This document shows, piece by piece, positions 4,792 through 61,603 of a DNA stretch of 64,000 nt. The position numbers and the translations under genes are program-made. The DNA lies in the IMG/VR virus record IMGVR_UViG_3300037069_000805, positions 1-64,000 of that record, one strand, 5' to 3'. Each line of letters begins with the position of its first letter. Positions within the stretch are counted from its first letter, which is position 1. Origin of the DNA: a virus. Below the pieces are notes generated by a model. That model did not search any database. It was not told the DNA's origin and worked only from the letters and a program-made list of their open reading frames with translations.

Positions 4792-5246
4792 AAAAAATAA
4801 TATTATTAGTAGTTATAACAATGAGTCTTATATCTTGTATGAAAGATAATAATTCTGGATTATATCCAGAGAATAAATTAGTTACACAGCAACCTAAATT
4901 AGAAAATACATTAAAAGAAGGTGTAATTGTTGGGATAAGTAAAGTAGTTACTACACATGATAGTTCTAATGATAGAGCTGTTAATGGAGCCTTATTAGGA
5001 GGTGCTGCAAGCTATTTTTTATCTCGTAGACCATCTATTACCAAAACTTTAATAGGAGCTAGTACAGGAGCTGTAGTAGGTAAGACAACAGGTGGAGATA
5101 TTACGCAAACTACAAATTATATATTAACTATTAAGAATTTATCAGATAATAGTATTACACAAAAAGCAACAACATCGTCAGGATTTATGGTTAAAGATAC
5201 TATTAATTATGATGAATATAGTGATGTAATATTTAAGAAATCATGA
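4788..5246 (+). CDS. lipoprotein with glycine-zipper 2TM segment
   Basis: Signal MKKIILLVVITMSLIS-C; GALLGGAA...GASTGAVVG glycine zipper (SlyB/YcfJ-like layout). Confidence 0.7.
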   Translation: MKKIILLVVITMSLISCMKDNNSGLYPENKLVTQQPKLENTLKEGVIVGISKVVTTHDSSNDRAVNGALLGGAASYFLSRRPSITKTLIGASTGAVVGKTTGGDITQTTNYILTIKNLSDNSITQKATTSSGFMVKDTINYDEYSDVIFKKS

Positions 5247-5538
5247 AAGAACAACATTATTTAGATGATATGGAAGAAGACTGGATGAATGGTCATGTAG
5301 TAGCTTCTTAAATAAAGTAATTATGACTATACAAAAAGTTCATAGAATGTACCCACCAAATTATACTGGTGATAGTGTAAAAAAACTAAATGATTATTTA
5401 TTAGATGGTTGGAAAGTTGTAAGAGTTGATCCAATTTCTCATGATGGAAAAACTATTTATAATGATTATTTATTAGAAAAATAAAATTCAGTTATCGGTG
5501 GGCAAGTCTGAATTAAAATAAAATCTTGCCTATTTTAA

Positions 5539-5914
5539 GGGGGTGACAGGTTTTGACATATAATTAATAGATATATAATTCAGCCAGAGAGATAACTGTA
5601 AACTAAGGTGAATTTAATAATAAACGGCAAAAATAACAAATCTGTTGGAAACAACACACAAGTTAGCGCAAATATGCGTGTAGTACATAACATCTTAAAC
5701 GGTGGTACTGAAGTGAGAAGTAATTCTCAGCCAATTGTTGCATTAGCAGCATAATATTAAGTTAAAGATTTCTTATTTAGATTAAAGTAAGTGGTGGAAT
5801 CACTAGGAAACTAGTTGACCTCGTGTATCTAAACACATAAATCTATAGTAAAGCTGTATATAAATTATATATTGAAGGTTGATATGGACCCGTTTTCAAT
5901 TAACGGCACCTCCA
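5539..5914 (+). ncRNA. ssrA: tmRNA (transfer-messenger RNA)
   Basis: 5' end GGGGGTGACAGGTTTTGAC; 3' end GGAC-CCGTT-TTCAATT-AACGG-CACCTCC-A; acceptor stem with G3:U wobble and discriminator A; tag frame 5626..5754 ends in ALAA-stop. Confidence 0.93.
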
Positions 5915-5995
5915 CTAACACGACTGTTACTAATTCATAGGGTTCCATGTGAAACTGCATAGAATTAGATTTTTTAATTAACTAATATAAATATT

Positions 5996-6358
5996 ATGAA
6001 AAGAAAATTTACATTTTATAAAGAAGATGGTATTTGGTTTATAAAACTTAAATATTGGTTAGGTCCTAAATGGATGTTAGCAATGGTGTGTGGTGCAGAT
6101 ATTTTATTAGAAAAATTAGCTGAAGGAAAACCTGAAGTTATATTAAGAATATCAACAAAACATTTCAATGAGTTTCATAGTGTCTTAACTAAAGAAAACT
6201 ATGATTTAAAATTATCTCAAGGAGCTGTATATAGAGGTGGTACATCAAGCGCTATTAATAATACAGTATTTAAATTTAATGAATTATGGTTATGTCCAGT
6301 TACATTATTTGTATTCGGAAGATATCCAGAAAAAATATTTTATGAAGTAATAAAATAA
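5996..6358 (+). CDS. DUF6717-like protein
   Basis: FYKE..WFI, LAMVCGAD.LL and LWLCPVTLFVFG.YP motifs. Confidence 0.7.
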   Translation: MKRKFTFYKEDGIWFIKLKYWLGPKWMLAMVCGADILLEKLAEGKPEVILRISTKHFNEFHSVLTKENYDLKLSQGAVYRGGTSSAINNTVFKFNELWLCPVTLFVFGRYPEKIFYEVIK

Positions 6359-10802: not shown

Positions 10803-11198
10803 ATGAGAAATACATTAATATGTGTATATGGTAGTTTAAGAAAAGAATTTGGAAATCATAGATTAATTAAAGATGCAGAATATAAAGGAATGTTTAGTAC
10901 AGATCCTGTTTATTCACTGTATTCATTAGGAGGATTTCCAGGTTTAAAAGAAAATGGTAACACATCTGTAGTTATGGAAGTTTATGCTGTAAATGACGCA
11001 GAAGCCCATAATGTAGATATGTTAGAAGGTTATACACCTGGTGAACCAGCCTATTTTTATGATAAGGTTAACATTGAAACTCCTTGGGGAGAGGCTGGTG
11101 TTTATATTTATGTTGGAAATATTGCTGAAGATAGATTAGTTAAATCAGGAGATTGGTTTACTTTTAAAAAAGGATTGGAAGTTAAAGAAGTAGTATAA
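10803..11198 (+). CDS. gamma-glutamylcyclotransferase (GGCT/AIG2-like)
   Basis: VYGSLR N-terminal motif, GGFPGL, EVYAV and D.LEG catalytic Glu region. Confidence 0.9.
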   Translation: MRNTLICVYGSLRKEFGNHRLIKDAEYKGMFSTDPVYSLYSLGGFPGLKENGNTSVVMEVYAVNDAEAHNVDMLEGYTPGEPAYFYDKVNIETPWGEAGVYIYVGNIAEDRLVKSGDWFTFKKGLEVKEVV

Positions 11199-12320: not shown

Positions 12321-13427
12321 TTGTCAGATAAAAGTTTATTTAATAGAACATTTGAATCCATAGTAAATAAAAGAGAACGTTTACTTAATGGAAAAATAAA
12401 TTGTATTCCTTGGAATTTACCTAGATTTGAAAGACAATGTCCTGGTATTGAACAAGGTAAATACTATTTAGTAACAGCTGCATCAAAAGCAGCAAAAACA
12501 CAACTAACAGATTGGTTGTTTGTATATAATACAATTCAACAAATAGTTGATAATAAATTAGATATTAGATTAAAAATATTTTATTTTTCATTAGAGCTTT
12601 CTAAAGAAGAAAAAATGTTAGCATGTTTTGCAAATATTTTGTATGTTAAAGAAGGAATACGTATATCACCTAGTGATTTAAAATCAACAAGAGAATCTAA
12701 TATTTTATCAAAAGATATATTAAATATTATTAAAAAATATGAAATATATTTTAAGAAAATAGAAGAAATTGTTGAATTTGTCGATGATGTTCGCCATCCA
12801 ACTGGAATTTACAATTTAGTTAGAAGATATGCTTTAGCTAATGGTAAAATTTATACAAGAAATATAGATATTAAAGGTGTTTTAACAGAAGTTGAAGATT
12901 ACTATGAGCCAAATGATCCTGACGAATATGTTATGATTATAATTGATCATATTAGCTTAATTTCAAGTGAAAAAAGAAATGATCAACAGTTAACACAACA
13001 TGAAAGTATTTCTATATTATCTTCAGATTATTTAATTAAACTTAGAAATAGATTTAATTATATACCTGTAGTTGTACAACAACAAGCATTAGCTGGTGAA
13101 AATATTGAACACAAGAAAATGAATAGTTTAAAACCTTCTGCTGCAAATTTAGCAGATAATAAATTAACTATTCGTGATTGTAATGTAGCATTAGGAATAT
13201 TTAGTCCTTTTAGAAATGAAATACCAGAATACTACGGATATGATATTACTCAATTTAAAGATAATATTAGATTTTTAGAAATTATGGTAAGTCGTGATGG
13301 AGGAGCAGGTACAATCTGCCCATTGTACTTTGACGGAGCTGTTAATTATTTTAAAGAGCTTCCTAAACCTGATGATAAAGAAGGTATGAAAGTAGTTTAT
13401 GAATTTTTAAAAAACATAAAGAGATAG
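12321..13427 (+). CDS. DnaB-like (SF4) replicative helicase, crAss-type
   Basis: Walker A variant AASKAAKT, YFSLE, Walker B IIIDHI, VVQQ, SRDGG arginine finger region. Confidence 0.85.
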   Translation: MSDKSLFNRTFESIVNKRERLLNGKINCIPWNLPRFERQCPGIEQGKYYLVTAASKAAKTQLTDWLFVYNTIQQIVDNKLDIRLKIFYFSLELSKEEKMLACFANILYVKEGIRISPSDLKSTRESNILSKDILNIIKKYEIYFKKIEEIVEFVDDVRHPTGIYNLVRRYALANGKIYTRNIDIKGVLTEVEDYYEPNDPDEYVMIIIDHISLISSEKRNDQQLTQHESISILSSDYLIKLRNRFNYIPVVVQQQALAGENIEHKKMNSLKPSAANLADNKLTIRDCNVALGIFSPFRNEIPEYYGYDITQFKDNIRFLEIMVSRDGGAGTICPLYFDGAVNYFKELPKPDDKEGMKVVYEFLKNIKR

Positions 13428-13428
13428 A

Positions 13429-13887
13429 ATGAAGAAAAGTGATGTAGTGAGTTTAGATACTTTAGATGAATACTATACAAAAACAAGAAAAATAAAATTT
13501 AACAATGATATACAAATAGAATCTTTAGATAATATTTATGATTCATTATTTTATAAAAAATTATATACTAATTTGCCAACTTATTATAGTAGGGGAGCAA
13601 GACATTGTAAATCTGGTAGAGCAAGAAGTATAGATGATTTTTTTAGAATTTCTAAATTTTATTTTCCAAATATGAATATCAAGGAAATAATTATTTTTTT
13701 AAAACTTAAAAATAAAGAAGAATTGAAAAATAGAGAAGTAATGCGTTTATTTTTTTGCAATACTATTAGAAAATATAATTTTCATGGTATTGTAAGTAAT
13801 ACAACATATTATAAATATTTATTAGATTATAATTTTCTTAGAGATGGTTTTATTAACTTTAATAAATCAATTGTAGATATAGTATAA
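13429..13887 (+). CDS. hypothetical protein, paralog family A
   Basis: TYY...HC..GRARSIDD...FFCNTIRK. Confidence 0.6.
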   Translation: MKKSDVVSLDTLDEYYTKTRKIKFNNDIQIESLDNIYDSLFYKKLYTNLPTYYSRGARHCKSGRARSIDDFFRISKFYFPNMNIKEIIIFLKLKNKEELKNREVMRLFFCNTIRKYNFHGIVSNTTYYKYLLDYNFLRDGFINFNKSIVDIV

Positions 13888-13918: not shown

Positions 13919-14686
13919 ATGATAGATTTACCAAAAGAAGTTGGAGGACCTTCTAGAAAAAACCCTAAAAAATTAATTATATTTAGTTCACCTAAAGCTG
14001 GTAAAACACACGCATTAAGTTTACTTGAAGATAATTTAATTCTTGATTTAGAAAGTGGTTCAGGATTTGTAGCTGGTCTAAAAATAAATGTTTTAGATGA
14101 AGCAAAAAAGCAGGATATTAAACCTATTATGGCTTTAAAACAAATTATTGATTCTATTACTAAAGCTAATAATGCAAAAAAAGGATATTTATATAAATAT
14201 ATCTCTATAGATACTGTTTCAGCTTTAGAAGATTTTTATGCTCCAACACTTGCATTAAGCCTTTACAAAAATACACCTATTGGGCGCAACTTTCAAGGTG
14301 ATAATGTTTTAGAATTACCACAAGGTGCAGGTTATTACTGGCAGAGATTAGCAATGATAATGATTTTAGATGAATTAGAAGCTCTTTGTGAAACATTAAT
14401 TATATCAGGTCACACAAAAGATAAATTAGTAGAACTTAATGGTAAAGAAATGACCCAGAGAGGATTAGATTTAGTAGGAAAAATGCCTTCTATATTATGT
14501 TCCAAAAGTGATGCAATTTGTTATTTATATCGTAAAGATAATCAAACAATAGCTAATTTTAAGACAGCAGATTCATTATCTGTAGGTGCTAGACCTGAAC
14601 ATCTTAAAAATCAAGAGATTGTTCTATTAGAACAAAATGAAAATGGAGAATTTGTATCTCATTGGGATAAAATCTTTATAGAATAA
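13919..14686 (+). CDS. AAA_24 / Sak4-like P-loop ATPase (recombination)
   Basis: SSPKAGKT Walker A, LDLESG, IDTVS Walker B, SGH motif. Confidence 0.85.
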   Translation: MIDLPKEVGGPSRKNPKKLIIFSSPKAGKTHALSLLEDNLILDLESGSGFVAGLKINVLDEAKKQDIKPIMALKQIIDSITKANNAKKGYLYKYISIDTVSALEDFYAPTLALSLYKNTPIGRNFQGDNVLELPQGAGYYWQRLAMIMILDELEALCETLIISGHTKDKLVELNGKEMTQRGLDLVGKMPSILCSKSDAICYLYRKDNQTIANFKTADSLSVGARPEHLKNQEIVLLEQNENGEFVSHWDKIFIE

Positions 14687-14949
14687 TGAGTTTTTATAAA
14701 GAAGAAGCTTTTAATCTTTTTATTTCAGAATTAACTGAATTAATTGAAAAAGGTGAAGGTACAATAGAAAATGATTGTTTATGTATAGGAGATATTGAAT
14801 CTCATCTTGGAGAAATAGCATCATTTAATGATGATTTTGATTCTAATGGTTGGGAATTTGATTATTGGTGTACATATAAAATAAATGATAAAACTCTTAA
14901 CATAAATGGTTCTGGGTATTATGGTGGTTTAAGTATCACAATAGATTAA
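14686..14949 (+). CDS. acidic hypothetical protein
   Basis: ORF track; SNGWEFDYW...GSGYYG motif. Confidence 0.6.
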   Translation: MSFYKEEAFNLFISELTELIEKGEGTIENDCLCIGDIESHLGEIASFNDDFDSNGWEFDYWCTYKINDKTLNINGSGYYGGLSITID

Positions 14950-15003
14950 ATAAGTTATAGTTCTTTAAAAACTAAAAATTTAATATAAGCAGATAAAATA
15001 AAT

Positions 15004-15600
15004 ATGGGAATAGATTTAAATGGAAGTGAGTATAATTCTCCAGTAGTGGGAATTTTCAACAATGGACAGGCTGGAAAAGTCAATGGAGTAAAAGTATCAG
15101 TAGAAAAGAAAGGAATAGCAGATTCAGATAATGCACCTGCATATAAAGTTCTATTTACTGATGAAATTGGTAGTATTAACATGGGATTATTCTACCCAAC
15201 TGAGCAATCAACAGATTCTCAAAATAAATTACTAGCAGGTAAATGTGCTGATTTAGTTAAAGCAGTTATGGGTGTAGATTATGTATTTCCTCAATATAAT
15301 TCATATAATGAATTACTTGATGGTTGTATGACAATCTTATCTCAAAATGCTGAAGGTAAATTAGTAAATGTATTTGCTACTTATGGAACTAAAGGAGCTC
15401 CTAAGAAATTCTTAGGTGTTTATAAAAACTTTAATTTCGTAGAAGGTGCTGATGTTAAAGCTTCTGCATTACGTCAAACTATTAATCCTAATAAGGAACA
15501 ATATGATGATTTAATGGAAAGAATTGTTGAAGATCAACAACCTACACAAATTAATGAAAGTAATGTATCTTCTGAACCAGTTTGGGGAGCAAGATCATAA
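15004..15600 (+). CDS. putative single-stranded DNA-binding protein
   Basis: Lies between the Sak4-like ATPase and primase; beta-rich N-terminus and a polar flexible tail ending near Trp. Confidence 0.5.
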   Translation: MGIDLNGSEYNSPVVGIFNNGQAGKVNGVKVSVEKKGIADSDNAPAYKVLFTDEIGSINMGLFYPTEQSTDSQNKLLAGKCADLVKAVMGVDYVFPQYNSYNELLDGCMTILSQNAEGKLVNVFATYGTKGAPKKFLGVYKNFNFVEGADVKASALRQTINPNKEQYDDLMERIVEDQQPTQINESNVSSEPVWGARS

Positions 15601-15742: not shown

Positions 15743-16054
15743 ATGAAATCGCAAGAATTTCCACAATGTTGTGGTATGAAGATATTATCAGAATTTGGTC
15801 ATACTACTACTGCTGTAGTTACAACAAAATATACCAGAGATGAAATAAAAGAATTTATAGTAAATGATAGAGGTGTTAGTTTTACACGTAGTACAATACA
15901 AGTAATATCTTTAAATGAACAACAACTTAAAAGTATAGGTAGAGATTTATTTGTAGAATTAGGATTTAAAATATCAGAACCAATGTATTATCCTGGTCAT
16001 GGTAATAATTTATTTATATTAACATATAATCCAAATGGTAGTAAACCTGAATAA
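15743..16054 (+). CDS. hypothetical protein, paralog family B
   Basis: QCCGMKIL...PGHGNNLFILTY, similar to 34383..35111 and 18360..18854. Confidence 0.6.
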   Translation: MKSQEFPQCCGMKILSEFGHTTTAVVTTKYTRDEIKEFIVNDRGVSFTRSTIQVISLNEQQLKSIGRDLFVELGFKISEPMYYPGHGNNLFILTYNPNGSKPE

Positions 16055-17069
16055 AAAATATGTAAGTAAAGAATTATTATTTGAACATATATCTGATTTA
16101 CAAATATATAGAGCATATATAGATTTTGATATAAAATTTGGAACTGTATTTTCATCTCCCTTAAGAGAAATAGATAATAAACCATCATTTGGTTTTTTTG
16201 AAGGTGAAGGTGGTGAAATATGTTTTAAAGATTTTGTATTAGGTACAGGTGACTGTATTAAATTTGTACAAATGAAATTTGGTTTAAATTATTTTGAGGC
16301 ATTAAGTAAAATTGCATTAGACTTTAATTTAGAAGATGAATTTAAAATTACAAATACATTCAAAACAAACATTAATTCTAATTATCAAAATTTTAAAGAT
16401 AGAGAAGCTATTATAAGAGAAATTAATAGTAATAATTTAGGTAAAACAGCTCGTACTTGGGCTTTACATGATTTAGCATTCTGGAATAAATTTGGTATAA
16501 CTAAAACTACATTAGAAAAATATAATGTAGAACCAGTATCTTATTTACATGTAGGTGTAAACAAAAAAATAATACCTGCTGATAAATATGCTTATTCATT
16601 TAGAGAAGCCAAAGAAGGTTCTTTTACTTATAAGATATATCAACCATATAATATAAATTATAAATGGTTAAATAATCATAATAATTCTGTATGGCAAGGA
16701 TGGTCACAATTACCATTAACAGGTAATGAAATTATAATAACTAAATCATTAAAAGATGTAATGTCTATTCATGATGTATTAGGAATACCTGCTGTAGCAT
16801 TACAATCAGAATCTGTAATACCTAAAGAAAAAATAATTGATGAATTAAAATCAAGATTTAAATATGTTTACATATTATATGACAATGATTACGATAAAGA
16901 AGAAAATTGGGGACAGATATTTAGTAATAAATTAACTAAAGAATTTGGATTTTATGAAATGTTTATACATGAAAAATATAAAAGTAAAGATTTTAGTGAT
17001 TTAGTTAAAAATCATGGTTCTAAAATAGCAACAGATTATATTAATACATTAATGGATTTACCATTTTAA
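16035..17069 (+). CDS. DNA primase (crAss-type, TOPRIM)
   Basis: SPLRE.DNKPSF, FKDF, IITKSLKDVM, LQSE, YDND and KDFSD motifs. Confidence 0.9.
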   Translation: MVVNLNKKYVSKELLFEHISDLQIYRAYIDFDIKFGTVFSSPLREIDNKPSFGFFEGEGGEICFKDFVLGTGDCIKFVQMKFGLNYFEALSKIALDFNLEDEFKITNTFKTNINSNYQNFKDREAIIREINSNNLGKTARTWALHDLAFWNKFGITKTTLEKYNVEPVSYLHVGVNKKIIPADKYAYSFREAKEGSFTYKIYQPYNINYKWLNNHNNSVWQGWSQLPLTGNEIIITKSLKDVMSIHDVLGIPAVALQSESVIPKEKIIDELKSRFKYVYILYDNDYDKEENWGQIFSNKLTKEFGFYEMFIHEKYKSKDFSDLVKNHGSKIATDYINTLMDLPF

Positions 17070-17082
17070 ATACTTTTAAGAT

Positions 17083-17484
17083 ATGGAAAAAAAGTTTTTG
17101 ATAGCTGTATATGGTTGTCTTAGAAAAGGTCTAAATATGCACGGTTATTTATCTTCCAATTCAATATATATGGGTAGTTATGATACAGATCCTATTTATA
17201 GTATGTATTCAATTAAATCATTTCCTGGTTTAGTAAAAAATGGTAATACTTCTATAAGAATGGAAGTATATGAAGTCAATGAAGGAGTATTAGATAATAT
17301 AGATGGATTAGAAGGAGTTAGTTCAATACACGATGATTTAAGTATGTTCTTAAGAGAATTAATAGAAACACCATATGGAGATGCTTATACTTATTTTTAT
17401 AATGAAGAAATTAATACAAGAGTAAAAGTAGATTGTGGTGATTGGTTAGAGTTTAAAAAACAATTAAAAAAAATGATTAAATAA
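17083..17484 (+). CDS. gamma-glutamylcyclotransferase (GGCT/AIG2-like)
   Basis: AVYGCLRKG, FPGL, MEVYEV and IDGLEG motifs; paralog of 10803..11198. Confidence 0.88.
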   Translation: MEKKFLIAVYGCLRKGLNMHGYLSSNSIYMGSYDTDPIYSMYSIKSFPGLVKNGNTSIRMEVYEVNEGVLDNIDGLEGVSSIHDDLSMFLRELIETPYGDAYTYFYNEEINTRVKVDCGDWLEFKKQLKKMIK

Positions 17485-17491
17485 TAATATT

Positions 17492-18367
17492 ATGGGTATT
17501 GTAAGTATTAAAAAAAATAAAAAAGAAATAACAAAAACTACAGATACTGGTAGAGGATGGATTCCTCAAATACGTAGTAGACATCCTAGCCATCATGGTT
17601 TAAGAGGTGCTCTTAGAAGATTAGGTTTTAGAAGTGTAATTAGATTTGGTTCTACAACAGAATTAGATGTTAATTATAGAGTTGAATTAAATTCAGCAGA
17701 AGCTATTAGAAATAGTTCTAGTAAACTTAAAATGAAAGAATGTTTTGATAATCTAAAAGTTAAAACAGCTAAATGGACACAATTAACTGGTGAAGCATTA
17801 ATTAATTGGATTCAAAATGAAAAAGATGGAGTTGGTTATCCAATTGTAGCTAAACATCATTTTGGAAGTAGAGGTACAGGTAATTATTTATTAAGAAATA
17901 AAAAAGAAGTAGAAGAATTTCTTAGTAAACAATCTAAAAATTTAGGTAGATATATATTTGAAAAATATTATAACTATAATAGAGAATATAGATTACATGT
18001 AACTAAAAATGGTTCATTCTATGCTTGTAGAAAAATGTTAAAAGGAGAATTTAAAGATAGTGATAAAGCATGGCAAAGACATGATGATAATTGCTCTTGG
18101 ATTTTACCAAACAATCCTTTATTTGAAACACCTAATAACTGGAAAGAAATAGAAGAACATTGTGTAAATGCTTTAAAATCTTGTGGTTTAGATTTTGGTG
18201 CTTGTGATTTAAGAGTTCAAAATAATACTGATGAAAAAGGTAAGGTAAGAGCTAATCCTGATTTTATTGTAATTGAAATTAATAGTGCTCCATCATTTGG
18301 ACAGATAACATTAGAAAAATATAAAGAAATGTTACCTGAACTACTTATACAGAAAAGTAATGAATGA
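17492..18367 (+). CDS. ATP-grasp peptide/amide ligase (RimK / phiEco32-like)
   Basis: YPIVAK...GSRGTG, FEKY, REYRLHV, LDFGACD and IEINSAPS motifs. Confidence 0.9.
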   Translation: MGIVSIKKNKKEITKTTDTGRGWIPQIRSRHPSHHGLRGALRRLGFRSVIRFGSTTELDVNYRVELNSAEAIRNSSSKLKMKECFDNLKVKTAKWTQLTGEALINWIQNEKDGVGYPIVAKHHFGSRGTGNYLLRNKKEVEEFLSKQSKNLGRYIFEKYYNYNREYRLHVTKNGSFYACRKMLKGEFKDSDKAWQRHDDNCSWILPNNPLFETPNNWKEIEEHCVNALKSCGLDFGACDLRVQNNTDEKGKVRANPDFIVIEINSAPSFGQITLEKYKEMLPELLIQKSNE

Positions 18368-18854
18368 ACCTTTTTATTTTTTTAACCAAAGTCCTTACAT
18401 AATCAATGATAATATAACTAAAGAAGTTTCAAAAATAGAATATAAAACAAGACTTCTTGTTACTGATTATTTAAAAGCTGGTAAAGTTACACAAATAGGA
18501 GAACATTTTTCTATAGAATTTATAATACAGAAAAATAGTTTTCCATATGATTTACGATTTGATGTATATACTGGAGCTTTTGGTAATTGTCAAAATGTTA
18601 CAGTAAGAAATTCTAATAAAATTATATTTGCAACAAATGATTATCAAGAATTTAAAGATGTTTTATTATATATAGTTGAACATTCTAAAAAGAAAGTTAT
18701 TATCTTTGATATTAAAGAAAGTTATTATGATCAATTAATTAAATTAATAGAAGGACATAATACAGAAGAAAAGCTGTTTTTAGTTAAACAAAAATATACA
18801 AATTTAACAAACAATATTATGTATTGCTTATACATAAATACAAATAATTTATAA
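18360..18854 (+). CDS. hypothetical protein in the amidoligase cluster (possible family B)
   Basis: FGNCQ...YTNLTNNIMYCLYI; overlaps the ATP-grasp stop. Confidence 0.6.
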   Translation: MNEPFYFFNQSPYIINDNITKEVSKIEYKTRLLVTDYLKAGKVTQIGEHFSIEFIIQKNSFPYDLRFDVYTGAFGNCQNVTVRNSNKIIFATNDYQEFKDVLLYIVEHSKKKVIIFDIKESYYDQLIKLIEGHNTEEKLFLVKQKYTNLTNNIMYCLYINTNNL

Positions 18855-18855
18855 A

Positions 18856-20547
18856 ATGAAAAAAACAATAGGTATTTATGCCGACACATTTAATGGTAAA
18901 GTTGGACAAACATTTGCTTATATGCAATTTTTTAGTCAATTTGGTTTTGTTAGAATGATATCTACACATGAAAATTTAGATAATATTATAAATGAAATTG
19001 ATATTCTAGTTATACCAGGTGGTGCTGATGTTGATGCAACATTATATGGTGAAATACCAGGTGTAAATGATAGTAGAATTAATCAACATTATGAATATTT
19101 AGATAATTTGTTAATACCTCAATTTATACAAGCAAATAAACCTATTATAGGGATAAACTAACATGTCCCATTATGTAGTGATACATAATTAAAAACGGGG
19201 TGAACTCATGGAAAAGCTGAAATGCCAATCATGAGCTAAGCTTAGAGAGAAATCTATTTGAAAGTGCAACGACTAGGAATCAAGACTAAGTTCTTCATTA
19301 TTAAAGAATATGTCAGTAATATTCCCACGAGCGCCCTGGTTCTCATTAAAACAAATAATATTTAAAATATTTTTAGAAAAAAGTTTAAGTTGATTAAAAT
19401 TTGCTTCATTCTTCATAGCATTAGCTAATCTAGAAATAACAATAATATTTCCTTTAATATATCCTTTAGAATTATTAATTCTATCTATTGTATGTGTATT
19501 GATAGCATAGGAAATATTTTTAGAATAATCTAATTCAAATTCTAATATTGGACAATATCTTGGTAAGATAATATCCGTATATTCTAAATTGAATTCTAAA
19601 TTTCTTCTTTTTGCAGATCCTTTTAAATTTCGTATCATATAACCTTTAATTCTATCTTCTCTATTTGAATAATTTCTTTCAATAAAGTTAGTTTTTAAAC
19701 CTAGTTTTTTACGAATATTTTGAGTCATTGATTTAGAAATATTAAGTTTTTCTGAAATCATTCTATCTGAATATCCTTTTTCTACATAATCTATAAATAA
19801 TTCTTTATAGGCTGTAATTTTAGAGGCTGGTTCAAGATTTAATGATTTTCTAAAAATACCTATTTTTTTACGATCAATATTTAATTCTGCTGCGATTTTA
19901 TAATCGCTTAATCCTTTATTATATAAAGGTAAAAATAATTCTTCCATAATTAAAATGTGTTTTATATTAAACATATAATAAAGATAGGGAATTTTTATTT
20001 AAAAAACAAGAAATAATTAAATTATTTTATAATAAAAAATATTATATTGAGAATATGATATAGTCTGGACTTACGTTAATAGAAAGCGTAAGAAGTATAG
20101 AATAAAGAGTCTATACGATAACAGCGACGATGTCGCGGAATGCAACGTCTAAATGTATATTTTGGTGGAACCCTGAACCAACATATTATTGGACATCATC
20201 AAGGTGATGATAGAGATAAAAGATTACAAATGTTACAATTTCCAGATAGTGAAAATGTATATTATGTAAATACTTTACATCATCAATCAGTTGATAAATT
20301 AGGTGATAATTTAGAAATATTAGCATATACACCAATATATGATGGATGTTATTCTAAACATACTAATTATCAACCTTGGAGAAGATTTGATAAATCTGGT
20401 AAACTTGAATCTACAGATAATTCACCTGTAACTATTGAAATATTTAAACATTCAGATTTAAAAGTTTTAGGAATACAATATCATCCAGAACAGTTCAATT
20501 GTAAACTAGCAAAAATGTTAATAGAAAATTTAATCGATGATGAATAA
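18856..20547 (+). CDS. class I glutamine amidotransferase / gamma-glutamyl hydrolase (peptidase C26, PuuD-like), spliced from exons 18856..19154 and 20130..20547 (238 aa)
   Basis: Exon 1 has IPGGADVD and ends KPIIG-AT; exon 2 begins A-TGT-CGC-GGA. Joining restores GICRGMQ; exon 2 also has VNTLHHQ and QYHPE. Confidence 0.9.
19273..19974 (-). CDS. intron-encoded HNH-type homing endonuclease, antisense to the intron (likely start 19947)
   Basis: Two N-terminal HTH repeats; SAKRRNLEFNL...YCP...IDRINNSKGY.KGNI...AN..K nuclease motif. Confidence 0.85.
   Translation of the reverse strand: MFNIKHILIMEELFLPLYNKGLSDYKIAAELNIDRKKIGIFRKSLNLEPASKITAYKELFIDYVEKGYSDRMISEKLNISKSMTQNIRKKLGLKTNFIERNYSNREDRIKGYMIRNLKGSAKRRNLEFNLEYTDIILPRYCPILEFELDYSKNISYAINTHTIDRINNSKGYIKGNIIVISRLANAMKNEANFNQLKLFSKNILNIICFNENQGARGNITDIFFNNEELSLDS
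19979..20010 (-). promoter_or_regulatory. Bacteroidota sigma70-type promoter for the intron endonuclease
   Basis: Minus strand CTTG-N20-TATCTTTA, a variant of TTTG / TAnnTTTG. Confidence 0.55.
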
Positions 20548-21205
20548 AAAAATAACAGTATTAATAAATGATAAGTTAAGTAATTCATCTTATTTAGCTT
20601 TCTTAAAAGAAATATTCACAGTTGAAGTTGTAGAATATTCAAAATACAATTACGAACATATTGACTTAGCATTATTTACAGGTGGAGAAGATGTAAATCC
20701 TATTTACTATAATGAAGGACAAGGAAATAGAACTCAATGTAATCCTGATAGAGATAAAGTTGAAAAAGCAATGTATAATTCTGTAGGTAAAAAAACATTT
20801 AAATTAGGAATTTGTAGAGGTTCTCAGTTATTAACTGTTTTATCTGGTGGAAAATTAGTACAACATGTTGAAAATCATACTAGATCTCATAGTATTATTT
20901 CTAATTTTCCAGAACATAATTATAAATTTATTATAACTTCTACACATCATCAAATGATGTACCCTTTCTTAATGAAAAAAGAAAGTTATCATATTATTGC
21001 TTATTCTGAATATTATTTAAGTAATACATATTTAAATGGAAAAAATGAAGAAATTTCTATTCCTGATGATTTTGTAGAACCTGAAATAGTATTTTATAAA
21101 GATAGTAATTCTTTATGTATTCAAGGACATCCTGAAATGTCAAGTTGTCCAGATGATACTAAACAAATGGTTGCTCATCTAATATTAAAATATTTAAACA
21201 AATAA
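20537..21205 (+). CDS. class I glutamine amidotransferase (peptidase C26-like)
   Basis: FTGGEDV, GICRGSQ, STHHQMM and QGHPE catalytic triad motifs. Confidence 0.9.
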   Translation: MMNKKITVLINDKLSNSSYLAFLKEIFTVEVVEYSKYNYEHIDLALFTGGEDVNPIYYNEGQGNRTQCNPDRDKVEKAMYNSVGKKTFKLGICRGSQLLTVLSGGKLVQHVENHTRSHSIISNFPEHNYKFIITSTHHQMMYPFLMKKESYHIIAYSEYYLSNTYLNGKNEEISIPDDFVEPEIVFYKDSNSLCIQGHPEMSSCPDDTKQMVAHLILKYLNK

Positions 21206-21208
21206 AAA

Positions 21209-22021
21209 ATGGTTAAAATTAAAGAAAATAAATATAAAATAACATTGGGGAGTGATCCTGAAATATTCATTAAAAATGAAAAAGAAATTGTATCAGCTGA
21301 AGGATTAACTGGTGGTTCTAAATGGGCACCAGTTCCTATTAGTGAAAGTGGTCATATGATTCAAGAAGATGGAATCGCTCTTGAATATAATATTCCACCA
21401 TCTGAAACAGTAGAAGAATTTATTGAAAATCATGAATTTGTACAAGATTATTTAAAACAAATGATTTTAGCTCACGGATATACATTTTCAATAAATAGAA
21501 GTGCTGAAATTAATCCTATATATTTACAAACAGAACAAGCAACTACATTTGGTTGTGAACCTGATTATAATGTATATTTAAAAGGAGAAAATATATCACC
21601 TAATCCTAATACAAATTTAAGATGTTGTGGTGGTCATATTCATATTGGATATCCAAATAATAATCAAGAACAAACTGAAAAAATAGTTTTAATGTTTGAT
21701 ATATTTCTTACATTACCTGCTCTATTTAAAGACAATGATACGCGTCGTAGAGAATTATATGGTAAAGCTGGTTCTTTCAGATTTAAAGATTTTGGTGTAG
21801 AATGTAGAGCATTATCTAATTTTTGGATTCATAATAGAGAAGATATGACTTGGATTTGGGAACAAACTATTAAAGCTGTAACTTGTGTATTGGATAATGA
21901 ATGTGATGAATTAATTGCAAAATATTCAGAAAAAACTAGAGAAGCTATTGATACTAATAATTTAGTATTAGCTAGAGAAATATTAACAAGTATAGAAAAA
22001 GAAGAATTAATAACAATTTAA
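21209..22021 (+). CDS. phiEco32-like COOH-NH2 ligase type 2
   Basis: LGSDPEIF, QEDG..LEYN, FGCEPDYN, GGHIHIG, RRELYGKAG and GVECRALSNFW motifs. Confidence 0.92.
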   Translation: MVKIKENKYKITLGSDPEIFIKNEKEIVSAEGLTGGSKWAPVPISESGHMIQEDGIALEYNIPPSETVEEFIENHEFVQDYLKQMILAHGYTFSINRSAEINPIYLQTEQATTFGCEPDYNVYLKGENISPNPNTNLRCCGGHIHIGYPNNNQEQTEKIVLMFDIFLTLPALFKDNDTRRRELYGKAGSFRFKDFGVECRALSNFWIHNREDMTWIWEQTIKAVTCVLDNECDELIAKYSEKTREAIDTNNLVLAREILTSIEKEELITI

Positions 22022-22022
22022 G

Positions 22023-24050
22023 ATGATAAACACATTAATAATTTTATTATTAATTCACTATGTGGGATTAATAGTCTTTAAACCAAAATTAAACATATTA
22101 AGTTGTGGTATATTTGCCTGGGCTGGTAAAGATTTTAAGAAATTTGATAAAGCAAAATTTGATATCCAAGGACTTTATAATAATGATAGAGGTGGAGATT
22201 CATGTGGAGTTAGTACAGATGGAGAAATATATTATGGTGTTGGTAATTTTCAAAAACACTATAATCAATTTATTGTAGAAAAAAATTATAAAACACCATT
22301 ATTATATCCAACAGTTATAGGTCATACTAGAAAATCTAGTTATGGAGTAATTAATGAACATAATGCACATCCATTTGGATTTGGTAATATTGATGGAGCA
22401 GGTTTTTCTTTTATAGGTTGTCACAATGGAACATTAATTAATCATAAAGAACTTGCAGAAAAATATAATGTAGATGAAGATCACTATAAACAAGAAAATG
22501 GAAATTTTGATAGAACTAAAATTGATTCAGAAATATTATTAGAAGGTATTTATTTATCTAAAGATATTAAAATACTTAATGATTATATTGGTGGGGCAGC
22601 TATTATATTTCAAGACTTAAGTGAACCTAATATAATATATGCTTATCATGGTGCATCTAGAAAAGAAACTACTGATACAGATGCTACAATATATGAAGAA
22701 AGACCTTTATATTATTATAGAGAAACTAAAAATAGTTTATATATTTCATCTATACCTGAACCATTAATAGCTATTGGTGGAGAGTTAGAAAAAACTGTAT
22801 TTGAATTTGATTATAATTATGTTTATAAAATCGAAAATGGTGATATAGATAAATGTGTTAAATTTAAAGTAGATAGATCTAAATCTGCACATAAAAGAGG
22901 TTATGCTAGTTCTGTTAGTAATCATAATCAAGCATCTGCATTTCATATGGGACAAAATTATAGTCAAATGATGAATAATAGAAATAGTAAGAAAAATAGA
23001 AAAAATAAGAAGAAATTATCAGATAATACTAAAGTAATTAATATTTATGATGAAGTTGAAGATAATTTCTTCAAATCTAAAGTATATTATAAAAATTTAA
23101 GATATTTTAGAAATGGTCATAAAATTAATGGTGTATGGACATTTATTAAAGGTTATGGTTTTTATTTTCTTAGTAATGATACTACTGCAGCTGAAAAAGA
23201 ATCTTATGATTTAATTGAAAGAGATTTTGATTTATCATCTGGTACTTTTATTAGAGTAGATAAAAAAGTTGATAAAAATAATAAAAATCTCTTTAAACCA
23301 TTTCCATTTAATTCTGAATTTCCTACTTTAATATATTTTCATGAAGGTATATTACTTAAAGATCCATTAGATTATAAAGTTCTTACTACAGAAAAAAGTA
23401 GAACATTTACATTAAGTGATTTATCTTATATGTCAAAATATCCATTAATATATAATATTACTATTAGAAAACCTGATTTACATCAAGAAATTTGGTTAGA
23501 TGGTAAAGCTTATACTGATACTTTTTCACCTACACAAAGTGGTAAAATTTATGAAGTTATTAATGGTAATTTAAAAAGTATTGAGGTATGTGAAAATATA
23601 TCTGATATTGTAGATATTCCTGATAATGAAACTCCTGTAATTCAATTACCTATTTCTTTAAATACATGTTGTAATATTGATGATCAAGATGATACAGAAA
23701 TGTTAGCAAATCTTGAGCAAGGTTTAATAGGACAATATTCACCATTAACAGAAGAAAATACTTTATTCACTCTACATTTAGAATCAAAAGTAACTGAATA
23801 TTTTATTAAAAAAAATAAATTTATTGAAGATGAAAAAATAATAGATGATGAATTACCATTAGTTAATTTTGATAAAGAAAGTACTGATAAAATTAATAAT
23901 TTAATGACTCCAATTTATGTAACAGTACAAAATGCTAATATTGAGTTAAAAAATATTAAAAATAATGATCAAGCATCACAATTAATTGATATAAATAAAG
24001 AATATTTAATGAATATTGATGATGTTGTAAATACAGATAACAAGAACTAA
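22023..24050 (+). CDS. class II (Ntn) glutamine amidotransferase with N-terminal hydrophobic extension and long C-terminal region
   Basis: CGIF at residue 28, RGGDSCG, GHTRKSS, NAHPF, HNGTL, DSE and ERPL motifs. Confidence 0.88.
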   Translation: MINTLIILLLIHYVGLIVFKPKLNILSCGIFAWAGKDFKKFDKAKFDIQGLYNNDRGGDSCGVSTDGEIYYGVGNFQKHYNQFIVEKNYKTPLLYPTVIGHTRKSSYGVINEHNAHPFGFGNIDGAGFSFIGCHNGTLINHKELAEKYNVDEDHYKQENGNFDRTKIDSEILLEGIYLSKDIKILNDYIGGAAIIFQDLSEPNIIYAYHGASRKETTDTDATIYEERPLYYYRETKNSLYISSIPEPLIAIGGELEKTVFEFDYNYVYKIENGDIDKCVKFKVDRSKSAHKRGYASSVSNHNQASAFHMGQNYSQMMNNRNSKKNRKNKKKLSDNTKVINIYDEVEDNFFKSKVYYKNLRYFRNGHKINGVWTFIKGYGFYFLSNDTTAAEKESYDLIERDFDLSSGTFIRVDKKVDKNNKNLFKPFPFNSEFPTLIYFHEGILLKDPLDYKVLTTEKSRTFTLSDLSYMSKYPLIYNITIRKPDLHQEIWLDGKAYTDTFSPTQSGKIYEVINGNLKSIEVCENISDIVDIPDNETPVIQLPISLNTCCNIDDQDDTEMLANLEQGLIGQYSPLTEENTLFTLHLESKVTEYFIKKNKFIEDEKIIDDELPLVNFDKESTDKINNLMTPIYVTVQNANIELKNIKNNDQASQLIDINKEYLMNIDDVVNTDNKN

Positions 24051-24051
24051 T

Positions 24052-25881
24052 ATGGAAAATATTGAAAAAGTAATAGCAATAGATAATAAAACTTATCCTA
24101 AAGATTCTTGTAGATTTATAGATGGTAAATATTATTTAATTGGATTAAAAGAAATTAAATGTTCTGGTCATGTTTATTTGATTAATGGTAGATATATTAG
24201 AGAAAATACTAATAGATTAGTTTATAATCATACTACAATGGAATATGAGTTGAAAAATAATTCAGTAATAGAAGGTATTATTGGATTTGATAAATTTAAT
24301 GTTCCTATATTAGGTTATTTTAATTTAAATCCAGTATATAATGTTAAAATTGTACTACAAAATGGCAATGAAAATATCTGTATTAATGAATCTATAATTA
24401 ATTTAAATTATAGAGAAGAAAAAAGTACAGGTATTTATTATCATATAACTTTAAAAAGCGTATTAGAATTAAGATCATTAGAATTAGTAGGAAGAGAATA
24501 TAAAGAATCTTTACCTTATGATTCAAGAGGTATTACATCTAAATATTTAAAAAATTATAATGATAATTATAATCCTATTTATAATGATAGTGTTGAAAAA
24601 TATAGTCTATTATTAAAAAATTATACTTTTGGTTTAGAATTTGAAAGTGTACTAGGTATTATACCTAATAATAAATTAAATTATTTACCATTAATTCCAT
24701 TAAGAGATGGTAGTATTGATGGTATAGAATATGTTACAGTTCCATTACAACATAAAAAGGGAATGCAAGCATTAATTGATTCAGTAAAAGAGTTAAATAA
24801 AAGAACAGAATATAATGAATCTTGTTCTTTACATTTACATATAGGTAATATACCTAGAACACCTGAATTTATATTAGCATTTTATAAATTATCTTGTTAT
24901 TTTCAAGAAGATATATTTAAGATGTTTCCTTTGTATAAAAAATATAATTTTGGAATAAAACGTAAAAATTATAGTAAACCATTTGATTTTAATAAGATTA
25001 ATATTTGCTTAGAACCAAGTATTGATATTAAAAATAAAGATCAAGTAAATAAAAATTTTAGTTTAATATTTAATTATTTATCAGAGGTTACACCTTTTTC
25101 AGAATTTAAATATGATTTAAATAATGTTAAAGAGCATCCTAGAGATCCTAATGGAAATACAAAATGGAATATTACAAATAGATATTATTCTGTAAATTTT
25201 ATTCCTTTAATTTTTGGAAATAAACAAACTGTTGAATTTAGAATTCATACTCCTACTTATGATATAGGTAAAATTATAAATTTCTTATTAATTAATATTT
25301 ATTGTATAGATTATACTATTAATAATATTTCTGAAATATTAAGTAATCCTAAGTTTTTATTAAAATATAATAATTTTCAACATTTTGTAGAAGATTATAT
25401 TTATAATCACAATCCTTTAAAAAAAGGTTTAAAAAATACATTATCAACTCATCAATTAAATTATTTAAGAGAAAGAATTTCTAAAACCTATGATGGAAAT
25501 TGTAATGGTGAAATTTCTGGTAATGAAAAGATTATTAAATGTAATAATGTTATAAACTGGAAAAATAATAATTTAGTTAATTATGATGAACTATATTATG
25601 ATAATAAATATGTTATTTCTAATGAAAATGATTTAGAAATTGATGAATCTAGAGAAATAAATAATAACGAAAAAGTTTTAAAAGCTAAAAAGAATTTTGG
25701 TTATATGCCAAGTCCTTTTGATGAAATTAGACAACCAGATTCACAAATAATATCTGATGCTAAAATTCACTACAAAAATACTATTAATAAAATACATAAT
25801 GAAATAAATTCTACACAATCAGTACATGGTGGATTTTTTCAACAGATACGTGAACGTGAAACTAATGTAAAACCAGTATAA
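24052..25881 (+). CDS. putative amidoligase (glutamine-synthetase-like COOH-NH2 ligase fold)
   Basis: TFGLEFE, RDGSI...EYVT.PL, CSLHLHIG, RY.SVN and TVEFRIH motifs. Confidence 0.88.
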   Translation: MENIEKVIAIDNKTYPKDSCRFIDGKYYLIGLKEIKCSGHVYLINGRYIRENTNRLVYNHTTMEYELKNNSVIEGIIGFDKFNVPILGYFNLNPVYNVKIVLQNGNENICINESIINLNYREEKSTGIYYHITLKSVLELRSLELVGREYKESLPYDSRGITSKYLKNYNDNYNPIYNDSVEKYSLLLKNYTFGLEFESVLGIIPNNKLNYLPLIPLRDGSIDGIEYVTVPLQHKKGMQALIDSVKELNKRTEYNESCSLHLHIGNIPRTPEFILAFYKLSCYFQEDIFKMFPLYKKYNFGIKRKNYSKPFDFNKINICLEPSIDIKNKDQVNKNFSLIFNYLSEVTPFSEFKYDLNNVKEHPRDPNGNTKWNITNRYYSVNFIPLIFGNKQTVEFRIHTPTYDIGKIINFLLINIYCIDYTINNISEILSNPKFLLKYNNFQHFVEDYIYNHNPLKKGLKNTLSTHQLNYLRERISKTYDGNCNGEISGNEKIIKCNNVINWKNNNLVNYDELYYDNKYVISNENDLEIDESREINNNEKVLKAKKNFGYMPSPFDEIRQPDSQIISDAKIHYKNTINKIHNEINSTQSVHGGFFQQIRERETNVKPV

Positions 25882-25904: not shown

Positions 25905-26594
25905 ATGGAAATAAAACATTTAAATCGCGAACATAATTATGATCTAGTTGTAGATTATGATGAGTTATTAGGAAAAAAATGGGCTAATTGTATTAAAAAT
26001 ACTCTTATCTCTAAACAAATGAATGAACTGATGTATAATCTTCATGAGAAATATAAAAATTGTAATTTCTTTTATCCTAGTAAACATGATATATTTAATG
26101 CTTTTAAGTATGTTGGTCCTTCTGAAATAAAAGTAGTAATTGTTAATACATTACCTAAATTTTCAGAACATAGTAATGGTCTTGCATTTGGTTCTAAATA
26201 TACTGATAAGGAAGATGTTCCAAGAGATATAATAGATTTATTTAAAAAAATAAATGAAAAATATCATTCTGATATAACTATTAGTAATGATTATACATTG
26301 AAAACTTGGGCTAATCAAGGTGTTTTATTATTAAATTCAGCATTAACTGGAACACATATGTCCAGAGATATATCTGAATGGTATTTTTTTGTACAAAATA
26401 TTATAAAATATATAAATGATTTTAAAACAGGTGTTGTATTTTTATTTGTAGAAGATGCTAATTTTTATTCTTCAATGGTGAATAAGAAAAGACATACTGT
26501 AATAAAATCAAAATCTTTAACTATAGATAAATTAGATGAAATTAATAATGAAATATTATTTATAAATGGTGAAGGTCATAACATTGAATGGTAG
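25905..26594 (+). CDS. uracil-DNA glycosylase family 1-like protein, catalytic motifs degenerate
   Basis: DIFNAF, KVVI, GLAF and WANQGVLLLNSALT match Ung, but GQDPY reads NTLPK and HPSP is absent. Confidence 0.8.
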   Translation: MEIKHLNREHNYDLVVDYDELLGKKWANCIKNTLISKQMNELMYNLHEKYKNCNFFYPSKHDIFNAFKYVGPSEIKVVIVNTLPKFSEHSNGLAFGSKYTDKEDVPRDIIDLFKKINEKYHSDITISNDYTLKTWANQGVLLLNSALTGTHMSRDISEWYFFVQNIIKYINDFKTGVVFLFVEDANFYSSMVNKKRHTVIKSKSLTIDKLDEINNEILFINGEGHNIEW

Positions 26595-61531: not shown

Positions 61532-61603
61532 AATTTGTGTGTATTTATATATTGCCTACTCTTTAGCTTTTCGGCTTCCGCTATGATTTTAAATATGTCA
61601 ATA

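Follow-up and report, generated by a model that had tools for sequence, protein, structure and literature searches.

A predicted amidoligase cassette with a candidate group I intron in the replication module of a crAss-like phage

Genes at the locus

A predicted amidoligase gene cassette was analyzed in a 64,000-nt stretch of viral DNA, hereafter called the window, which is the start of a 104,240-bp IMG/VR virus record rated complete (IMGVR_UViG_3300037069_000805). The cassette occupies positions 17083-25881 and consists of eight co-oriented plus-strand genes that are separated by gaps of no more than 8 nt or overlap shortly (Table 1). Family matches were obtained for all seven enzymes encoded there using Pfam and PHROGs, and the alignments demonstrated that the catalytic residues were kept in each enzyme family. 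A preliminary description of the window had named eight tightly coupled genes at this site. Their coupling was borne out by the coordinates of the open reading frames (ORFs), with the first Peptidase_C26 (C26) gene consisting of two predicted exons, and its domain calls were all upheld when checked with Pfam, PHROGs, PDB profiles, and two AlphaFold models.

The COOH-NH2 ligase type 2 was recognized by PF14395 with 32.2 bits (cut-off 25), a family described in Pfam as carboxylate-amine ligases of the GCS2/glutamine synthetase (GS) superfamily, and 36 residues were invariant among 45 homologs. The two genes that follow it, which are adjacent to each other, encode a class II glutamine amidotransferase (GATase) of the N-terminal nucleophile (Ntn) type and an Amidoligase_2 protein, both above the Pfam cut-offs (PF13522 and PF12224). 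In the AlphaFold model of Amidoligase_2, a core with the fold of GS, glutamate-cysteine ligase (GCL) and PafA was found at about residues 170-490 (predicted local distance difference test, pLDDT, about 90), together with a beta-rich N-terminal domain (residues 1-115) and a disordered tail. The top 18 matches of a fold search with this model were all GS, GCL, YbdK, PafA or Dop structures (Z 6.9-9.5); the next match had a Z of 4.2. Profile searches of the PDB with both GS-fold ligase families gave no match at E 1, and the single sequence of Amidoligase_2 gave no PDB match.

The class II GATase begins with a 27-residue hydrophobic leader (22023-22103), followed by Cys28 (codon 22104-22106), and contains a conserved middle domain (about residues 340-520) and a C-terminal helical hairpin. 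The Cys, Arg, Asn-Gly, and Asp residues of the Ntn glutaminase site are kept. In the AlphaFold model, the Ntn domain matched GlmS with a Z of 20.9, and Cys28 superposed on residue 1 of GlmS and PurF. The sequence of the leader was conserved in five of 12 homologs, and the other seven begin with MCGI. The homolog g040 of Cellulophaga phage phi14:2 aligns from residue 1 of the window protein and appears to carry an N-terminal leader as well. PurF of Bacillus subtilis, which has a cleavable propeptide, is a precedent in this enzyme family; a catalytic Cys at the mature N-terminus would require removal of the leader in a PurF-like manner. A single-sequence PDB search with the class II GATase gave no match, and no usable ESM Atlas match was obtained for the middle domain. 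A word-index search with this domain retrieved five proteins only, all of them full-length class II GATases (that of the window and four relatives), and the match lists of whole-model fold searches were filled by the Ntn domain, not by the middle domain.

The ATP-grasp protein scored right at the family cut-off of PF02222. The best PDB matches of its family profile were structures of RimK/alpha-L-glutamate ligases (7qyr, 5zct, and 4iwx; 1e-12 to 1e-11), and no match was found with the single sequence; the protein is assigned by its profile to the RimK/alpha-L-glutamate ligase group. The gamma-glutamylamine cyclotransferase (GGACT) of the cluster keeps the YGxL motif (as YGCL) and the invariant catalytic Glu61. 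A second GGACT paralog of the window, which the preliminary description does not name, is 44% identical to it, keeps YGxL and the invariant Glu, and is also present in two relatives (L002 and L005). For the 164-aa protein, no Pfam or PHROG match was found, and the leads from the ESM Atlas were unreliable (scores below 0.9, pLDDT 0.46).

The window has a G+C content of about 24% and a crAss-like layout with three giant minus-strand ORFs (1545-2200 aa). The plus-strand replication block comprises genes for a DnaB-like helicase, a Sak4-like protein, primase, an exonuclease, ribonucleotide reductase (RNR), dUTPase, and ThyX. Within this block, the cassette is bounded by a DnaG-type primase gene at the 5' side and a gene resembling uracil-DNA glycosylase (UDG) at the 3' side, and its order of COOH-NH2 ligase, class II GATase and Amidoligase_2 is that of the Steigviridae-type replication-module version. 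The UDG-like protein had no Pfam match. No terminator-like sites were found inside the cluster; the scan for promoters and terminators was uninformative in this AT-rich DNA. Megablast against deposited phages revealed no near relative of the cluster.

Table 1. Features of the cassette and its surroundings in the window
Feature	Position	Strand	Evidence and remarks
Second GGACT paralog (AIG2-like gamma-glutamylamine cyclotransferase)	10803..11198	+	PF06094 6.5e-16; outside the cluster, about 6 kb upstream
DNA primase	16035..17069	+	phrog_12622 2.8e-66; upstream border of the cassette
GGACT/AIG2-like gamma-glutamyl(amine) cyclotransferase	17083..17484	+	PF06094 1e-13; phrog_2520 3e-18
RimK-type ATP-grasp ligase (alpha-L-glutamate ligase-like)	17492..18367	+	PF02222/PF02786; phrog_2599 3e-32
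Uncharacterised 164-aa protein (x)	18360..18854	+	Accessory gene, semi-conserved
C26a, predicted exon 1 (Peptidase_C26)	18856..19154	+	PF07722 2.6e-08, profile positions 48-111; ends with PIIGI
Candidate group I intron in C26a	19155..20129	+	975 nt; RF00028 29.5 bits, E 2.6e-05
HNH/EndoVII-like homing endonuclease ORF in the candidate intron	19273..19974	-	phrog_3322 9.7e-26; phrog_3118 HNH 4e-10
C26a, predicted exon 2	20130..20547	+	PF07722 1.2e-10, profile positions 115-197; starts with CRGMQ, has HPE
C26b (Peptidase_C26)	20537..21205	+	PF07722 1.6e-17; phrog_7218 2.2e-32
COOH-NH2 ligase type 2	21209..22021	+	PF14395 8.1e-08; phrog_3815 4.5e-75
Class II (Ntn) GATase, 675 aa	22023..24050	+	PF13522 (GATase_6)
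Amidoligase_2	24052..25881	+	PF12224; phrog_2443 6.7e-30
UDG-like protein, decayed catalytic motifs	25905..26594	+	phrog_12143; downstream border

Gene order in related phages

The cassette was compared among 61 loci, in which the genes were found with iterated hidden Markov models (HMMs). Genes are designated by letters: P, primase; G, GGACT; A, ATP-grasp; x, 164-aa gene; C, C26; L, COOH-NH2 ligase; N, class II GATase; M, Amidoligase_2; U, UDG-like gene; Y, gp85-like gene. Three layouts were observed, of which C-L-M-N-A was the commonest (25 loci). The layout L-M-N-A-G occurred in phiEco32 and LUZ24-like phages, and P-G-A-(x)-C-(C)-L-N-M-U was the crAss-like form. Amidoligase_2 and the class II GATase were adjacent in all 55 loci having both, and C26 and the COOH-NH2 ligase in all 44; GGACT and ATP-grasp were neighbors in 22 of 26. 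The primase gene lay immediately 5' of GGACT in 16 of the 19 loci that have both.

The assignment to the phiEco32-type amidoligase cassette, made in the preliminary description, is well founded: PF14395, PF12224 with PF13522, a RimK-like ATP-grasp protein, and AIG2/GGACT stand in one block, and the five enzyme families and the pairing M-N, C-L and A-G are the same as in the cassette of phiEco32, LUZ24, PA11 and RIO-1. Iyer et al. 2009 and Hardies et al. 2013 are said to be the sources for the latter type. The primase gene likewise marks one end of the cassette in phiEco32 and LUZ24-like phages, where the block is placed in the early/replication region (PMC3890496). The phiEco32-type order is (C)-L-Y-M-N-A-(G), whereas the crAss-like version is without Y and has longer N and M proteins with extra domains; the window additionally has a second C26 clade. 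The gene Y encodes a gp85-like protein of about 200 aa and lies between the two ligase genes in 38 non-crAss loci. A family HMM built from 32 of these genes found six more, all in non-crAss loci, and gave no match in the window or its crAss-like relatives. A fusion of the gp85-like gene into the longer crAss-like N or M proteins was considered and rejected, as hhalign against the N and M alignments gave a probability of 0.1. The gp85-like gene is common in the cassette and is not part of its published definition.

The crAss-like form is present in a cultured phage, Cellulophaga phage phi14:2 (Crassvirales, Steigviridae, Akihdevirus; NC_021806, deposited 2013). Its genes g036-g042 encode, at the same locus and in the same order, primase, gamma-glutamyl cyclotransferase (GGCT), ATP-grasp, COOH.NH2 ligase, class II GATase, amidoligase, and UDG. 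Its proteins in this block share 30-52% identity with their window counterparts; the value for the primase (g036) is 40%. Phage phi14:2 differs from the window in that C26, the 164-aa gene and the intron are all missing, and in a less decayed motif A of UDG (GKEPY). In the uncultured gut phage cr108_1 (NC_055878; crAss-like, Steigviridae, Pipoluvirus), the series reads primase, ATP-grasp, C26, COOH.NH2 ligase, class II GATase, amidoligase-like protein, and UDG, with the single C26 gene directly before the COOH.NH2 ligase gene. This phage differs in its single C26 gene, in the lack of a detected GGACT, in two other hypothetical genes that replace the 164-aa gene, and in a canonical UDG motif (GQDPY). 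Fourteen IMG/VR contigs keep the gene order of the window at 40-72% identity.

The survey of synteny thus returned the same order in phi14:2, cr108_1 and the 14 IMG/VR relatives, with the second C26 gene being specific to a subclade. The location between primase and a degenerate UDG in a crAss-like phage, as preliminarily described, is correct; the novelty ascribed to it is not, since this arrangement is already annotated in phi14:2 and cr108_1, and on these annotations a crAss-like cassette at the primase-UDG locus has to be regarded as known. Similarly, C26 genes had been presented as a new element, but C26 next to the COOH-NH2 ligase belongs to the commonest layout, and only the second paralog is particular. 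Motif A of the UDG-like protein decays stepwise from GQDPY (cr108_1) over GKEPY (phi14:2) to NTLPK (window), and the subclade with two C26 genes has also lost the His loop of this protein. L004-L007 and L016 have a homolog of the 164-aa gene in the corresponding place, and none was found in L002, L003, L012, phi14:2 and cr108_1; this gene occurs in six of nine loci with two C26 genes (eight phages, as L002 and L003 are near-identical). A divergent second C26 gene, the semi-conserved 164-aa gene, a second GGACT, the candidate intron and a decayed UDG-like gene are, among the genomes compared, peculiar to the window subclade; for this phage the apparent particulars are a second C26 gene requiring intron splicing, the 164-aa protein, and the second GGACT.

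In a third group of large viral contigs (L020, L025, and L043; 47-129 kb), the cassette genes follow another order, namely primase, UDG-like, GGACT, COOH-NH2 ligase, ATP-grasp, class II GATase (850 aa) and amidoligase, and C26 is missing.

The C26 paralogs and the candidate group I intron

When exon 1 of C26a was read through, a stop codon was reached at 19161. The Cys codon of its GICRG motif (20131-20133) lies in exon 2, and the insert between both parts ends one base before this codon. The match to the group I intron family RF00028 begins at 19145 and remains below the gathering score of 50 because an insert carrying the ORF interrupts the core. A P1 helix can be drawn between GGGAU (19150-19154) and GUCCC (19165-19169), which places a U.G wobble pair at the 5' splice site, and the terminal base of the candidate intron (20129) is G. 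The joined exons are in frame, encode 238 aa, restore GICRG, and align end to end with uninterrupted genes of 236-246 aa in eight relatives. These relatives lack the 975-nt insert in the alignment. By these features the insert behaves as a group I intron, and C26a is predicted to be intact after splicing only. The alternative of a dead gene broken by insertion of an endonuclease was rejected, as neither exon has lost its reading frame or its conservation, and joining them recreates the catalytic motif precisely.

The Cys-His-Glu triad (GICRG, HPE) is present in both C26 paralogs and near-invariant in 36 homologs. Two GATases with intact triads had been postulated for the window; this is accurate for C26b as encoded, whereas C26a is split and its motif is whole only after splicing. 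The two paralogs share 27% identity. In the tree, C26b grouped with the single C26 of cr108_1 and of 50-kb phages, and C26a formed a separate long-branch clade with full support. C26a is accordingly placed by the tree as an old, deeply divergent extra paralog, and C26b would be the canonical class I GATase or gamma-glutamyl hydrolase of the cassette. A recent tandem duplication was rejected in view of the identity of only 27% and the separate, fully supported clades.

A search of the PDB with the C26 profile gave Lin1909 and PuuD-type hydrolases as the closest structures (PuuD, 8.5e-13), and GATases of the CarA/GuaA type matched less well (1e-8 to 1e-9). The single sequence of C26b retrieved Lin1909 only. 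A complex prediction of the COOH-NH2 ligase with C26b reached a score of 0.22 (mark 0.32), which speaks neither for nor against pairing.

Interrupted genes were also noticed in other cassettes. The Amidoligase_2 gene of L007 is split (12760-13884 and 14754-15479), and positions 14518-14751 of this relative match the group I intron family (49.9 bits, E 1.9e-11). In L016, the COOH-NH2 ligase gene is split by about 420 nt (4871-5308 and 5729-6130), and the insert (5308-5729) had no Rfam match. The intron sites of C26a and of L007 differ; therefore, cassette genes appear to host introns at different sites among relatives.

Possible chemistry and acceptor

The region is the crAss-like (Steigviridae-type) form of a widespread phage amidoligase cassette and consists of three conserved two-gene modules: C26 with the COOH-NH2 ligase, the class II GATase with Amidoligase_2, and GGACT with the RimK-type ATP-grasp enzyme. 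With modest confidence, these modules probably carry out gamma-glutamyl or carboxylate-amine amide chemistry. To our knowledge, the reaction common to all characterised enzymes with the GS/GCL/PafA fold is activation of the glutamate gamma-carboxylate, followed by its linkage to ammonia or to an amine. The two ligases of this fold would activate a carboxylate with ATP, by precedent the gamma-carboxylate of glutamate, and join it to an amine or ammonia. C26 and Ntn enzymes are either glutaminases that provide ammonia or hydrolases of gamma-glutamyl amides, and the partners with a Cys nucleophile may play either role here. Glutamate is attached to a carboxyl terminus by enzymes of the RimK type, and GGACT enzymes split gamma-glutamyl amides to set the amine free; the ATP-grasp enzyme would correspondingly add a glutamate-type residue, and GGACT would free the amine from a gamma-glutamyl amide, leaving 5-oxoproline. 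A comparable couple is BtrJ/BtrG of butirosin biosynthesis, in which a gamma-glutamyl group is introduced by an ATP-grasp enzyme and taken off again by an AIG2-like cyclotransferase. The constant pairing of Cys hydrolases with ligases speaks for two ligase units that are coupled and glutamine-dependent, next to a third unit that adds and removes a glutamyl group. Taken together, the cassette would act in the cytoplasm on a small peptide-like acceptor, writing and trimming amide or isopeptide bonds, and it is probably active during phage replication because it is placed in the replication module. Gamma-glutamyl or amide chemistry, as suggested preliminarily, is a reasonable reading; it is inferred from what the enzyme families do.

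As acceptor, a precursor of the peptidoglycan stem peptide is the leading, still tentative candidate, e.g. through amidation or extension of its free carboxylates. The cassette has been named a peptidoglycan modification cassette (PMC5498523), and the published proposal, which is followed here, is ascribed to Iyer et al. 2009 in PMC10580990. In cellular amidation of peptidoglycan by MurT/GatD, a class I GATase with glutaminase function works together with a ligase that uses ATP to amidate a carboxylate of the stem peptide (PMC3267633), and the pairing logic of the phage cassette is similar. Among the phage records with the COOH-NH2 ligase, at least 275 of 315 infect Gram-negative Proteobacteria. 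The peptidoglycan proposal fits both this amidation logic and the Gram-negative hosts of most carriers. Enzymes of the AsnB/LtsA type, in which a class II GATase is fused to a synthetase domain, also amidate peptidoglycan.

Several points weigh against peptidoglycan. The acceptor is a guess, as no member of the cassette has a product, substrate or phenotype assigned. The phage ligases are not of the Mur type: MurT/GatD and AsnB/LtsA use the Mur ligase and PP-loop synthetase folds and the phage ligases the GS/GCL fold, no sequence relationship to either system was found, and Pfam detected no Mur ligase domain. The nearest characterised relatives of C26 are hydrolases of free gamma-glutamyl amines (PuuD) rather than ammonia-channelling subunits. 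Pairs of amidoligase and GATase are also reported in viruses of wall-less archaea that have no peptidoglycan (PMC11706807), and in actinophages (PMC5513430), and these argue against peptidoglycan as the only target. Since the gp85-like gene is absent, the crAss-like version may moreover differ in chemistry.

The affinity to PuuD leads to the foremost rival, a serious one that we nevertheless consider unlikely: the acceptors would be free amines such as polyamines, or a gamma-glutamyl small metabolite, with the ligases gamma-glutamylating the amine and C26 and GGACT cleaving or recycling the conjugates. The purpose would be control of the polyamine pool in replication and packaging, or the countering of polyamine inhibition of phage replication. 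The enzyme set resembles the Puu/Pau pathway, in which a GS-fold ligase makes a gamma-glutamyl amine and the C26 hydrolase PuuD (gamma-glutamyl-GABA hydrolase) removes the group; PuuD is the best characterised C26 relative in the PDB, ahead of the CarA/GuaA type, and the fold matches of Amidoligase_2 include the gamma-glutamyl-amine synthetases GmaS and 1-naphthylamine GS. GGACT enzymes are known to use gamma-glutamylamines. The cassette lies within the replication module, and intracellular accumulation of polyamines inhibits phage replication in Pseudomonas aeruginosa (PMC9992862). However, the phage ligases are very far from PuuA and PauA by sequence, with similarity at the level of the fold only: Pfam detected no type I GS-like domain (Gln-synt_C), and PDB searches at E 1 gave no sequence match. 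Seven enzymes are also many for a catabolic shunt, and the Puu/Pau pathway has no RimK-type step.

Less probable again is a modification of proteins, in which RimK-like C-terminal glutamylation would be combined with PafA/Dop-like isopeptide ligation or deamidation on a host protein, e.g. ribosomal protein S6, or a phage protein, with the hydrolases as erasers or tag processors. The ATP-grasp enzyme is nearest to RimK, and Amidoligase_2 matches Dop and PafA as well as GS and GCL (Z 9.0-9.3); peptide tagging was considered by Iyer et al. 2009, as cited in PMC10580990. The cluster nevertheless contains no gene for a Pup-like tag or an obvious substrate, the 164-aa gene is not conserved, and GGACT and C26 are families known for small substrates.

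Auxiliary nitrogen or amino-acid metabolism, with recycling of glutamine, glutamate or gamma-glutamyl compounds that feeds nucleotide synthesis, is improbable. Such a role was proposed for Phage-ZRK32, on indirect evidence (PMC10945688), and genes for RNR, dUTPase and ThyX are near the cassette. Recycling would not need three ATP-consuming ligases that form amides, and the strict pairing of hydrolases with ligases argues for coupled synthesis.

A modification of nucleic acids (DNA, nucleotides or tRNA) tied to the neighboring primase and decayed UDG-like protein is very improbable. In its favor, primase gene and cassette are neighbors in three phage groups that are not related to each other (PMC3890496 among the sources), and the loss of the UDG-like motifs coincides precisely with the subclade whose cassette is enlarged. 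On the other side, the genome encodes ThyX and dUTPase and lacks a ThyA-like hydroxymethylase, the comparable parts of the two models showed neither a nucleic-acid-binding nor a transferase domain, and the UDG-like gene is not beside the cassette in L020, L025 and L043. The same very low probability is given to a specific form of this reading, a replication-coupled rather than cell-wall cassette that places a Gln- or Glu-derived amide on DNA or a nucleotide, with the UDG-like protein as reader or protector of the modified base.

The signature COOH-NH2 ligase of the cassette was found in 315 deposited phage genomes. Carriers are phages of Proteobacteria, Bacteroidota and Cyanobacteria, including crAss-like phages of the sea and gut. 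More than 15 years after the description of the cassette, no product was identified in the literature searched; full texts yielded genomic descriptions and hypotheses only, in agreement with the preliminary statement that the product is uncharacterised. Its identification would explain a large and costly block of phage early genes. The question is no more testable through the window than through the cultured carriers phi14:2, phiEco32 and LUZ24. The window adds a clear picture of the crAss-like version, a logic of three pairs that indicates which proteins to co-express, and evidence that cassette genes are conserved enough to host homing introns.

Two structured RNAs were detected elsewhere in the window, both above the gathering scores of Rfam. 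A full-length tmRNA match is located at 5539-5917 on the plus strand (RF00023, 56.9 bits), and a DUF805b RNA motif at 61553-61584 on the minus strand (RF02914, 47.1 bits), just upstream of the gene of a 753-aa virion protein.

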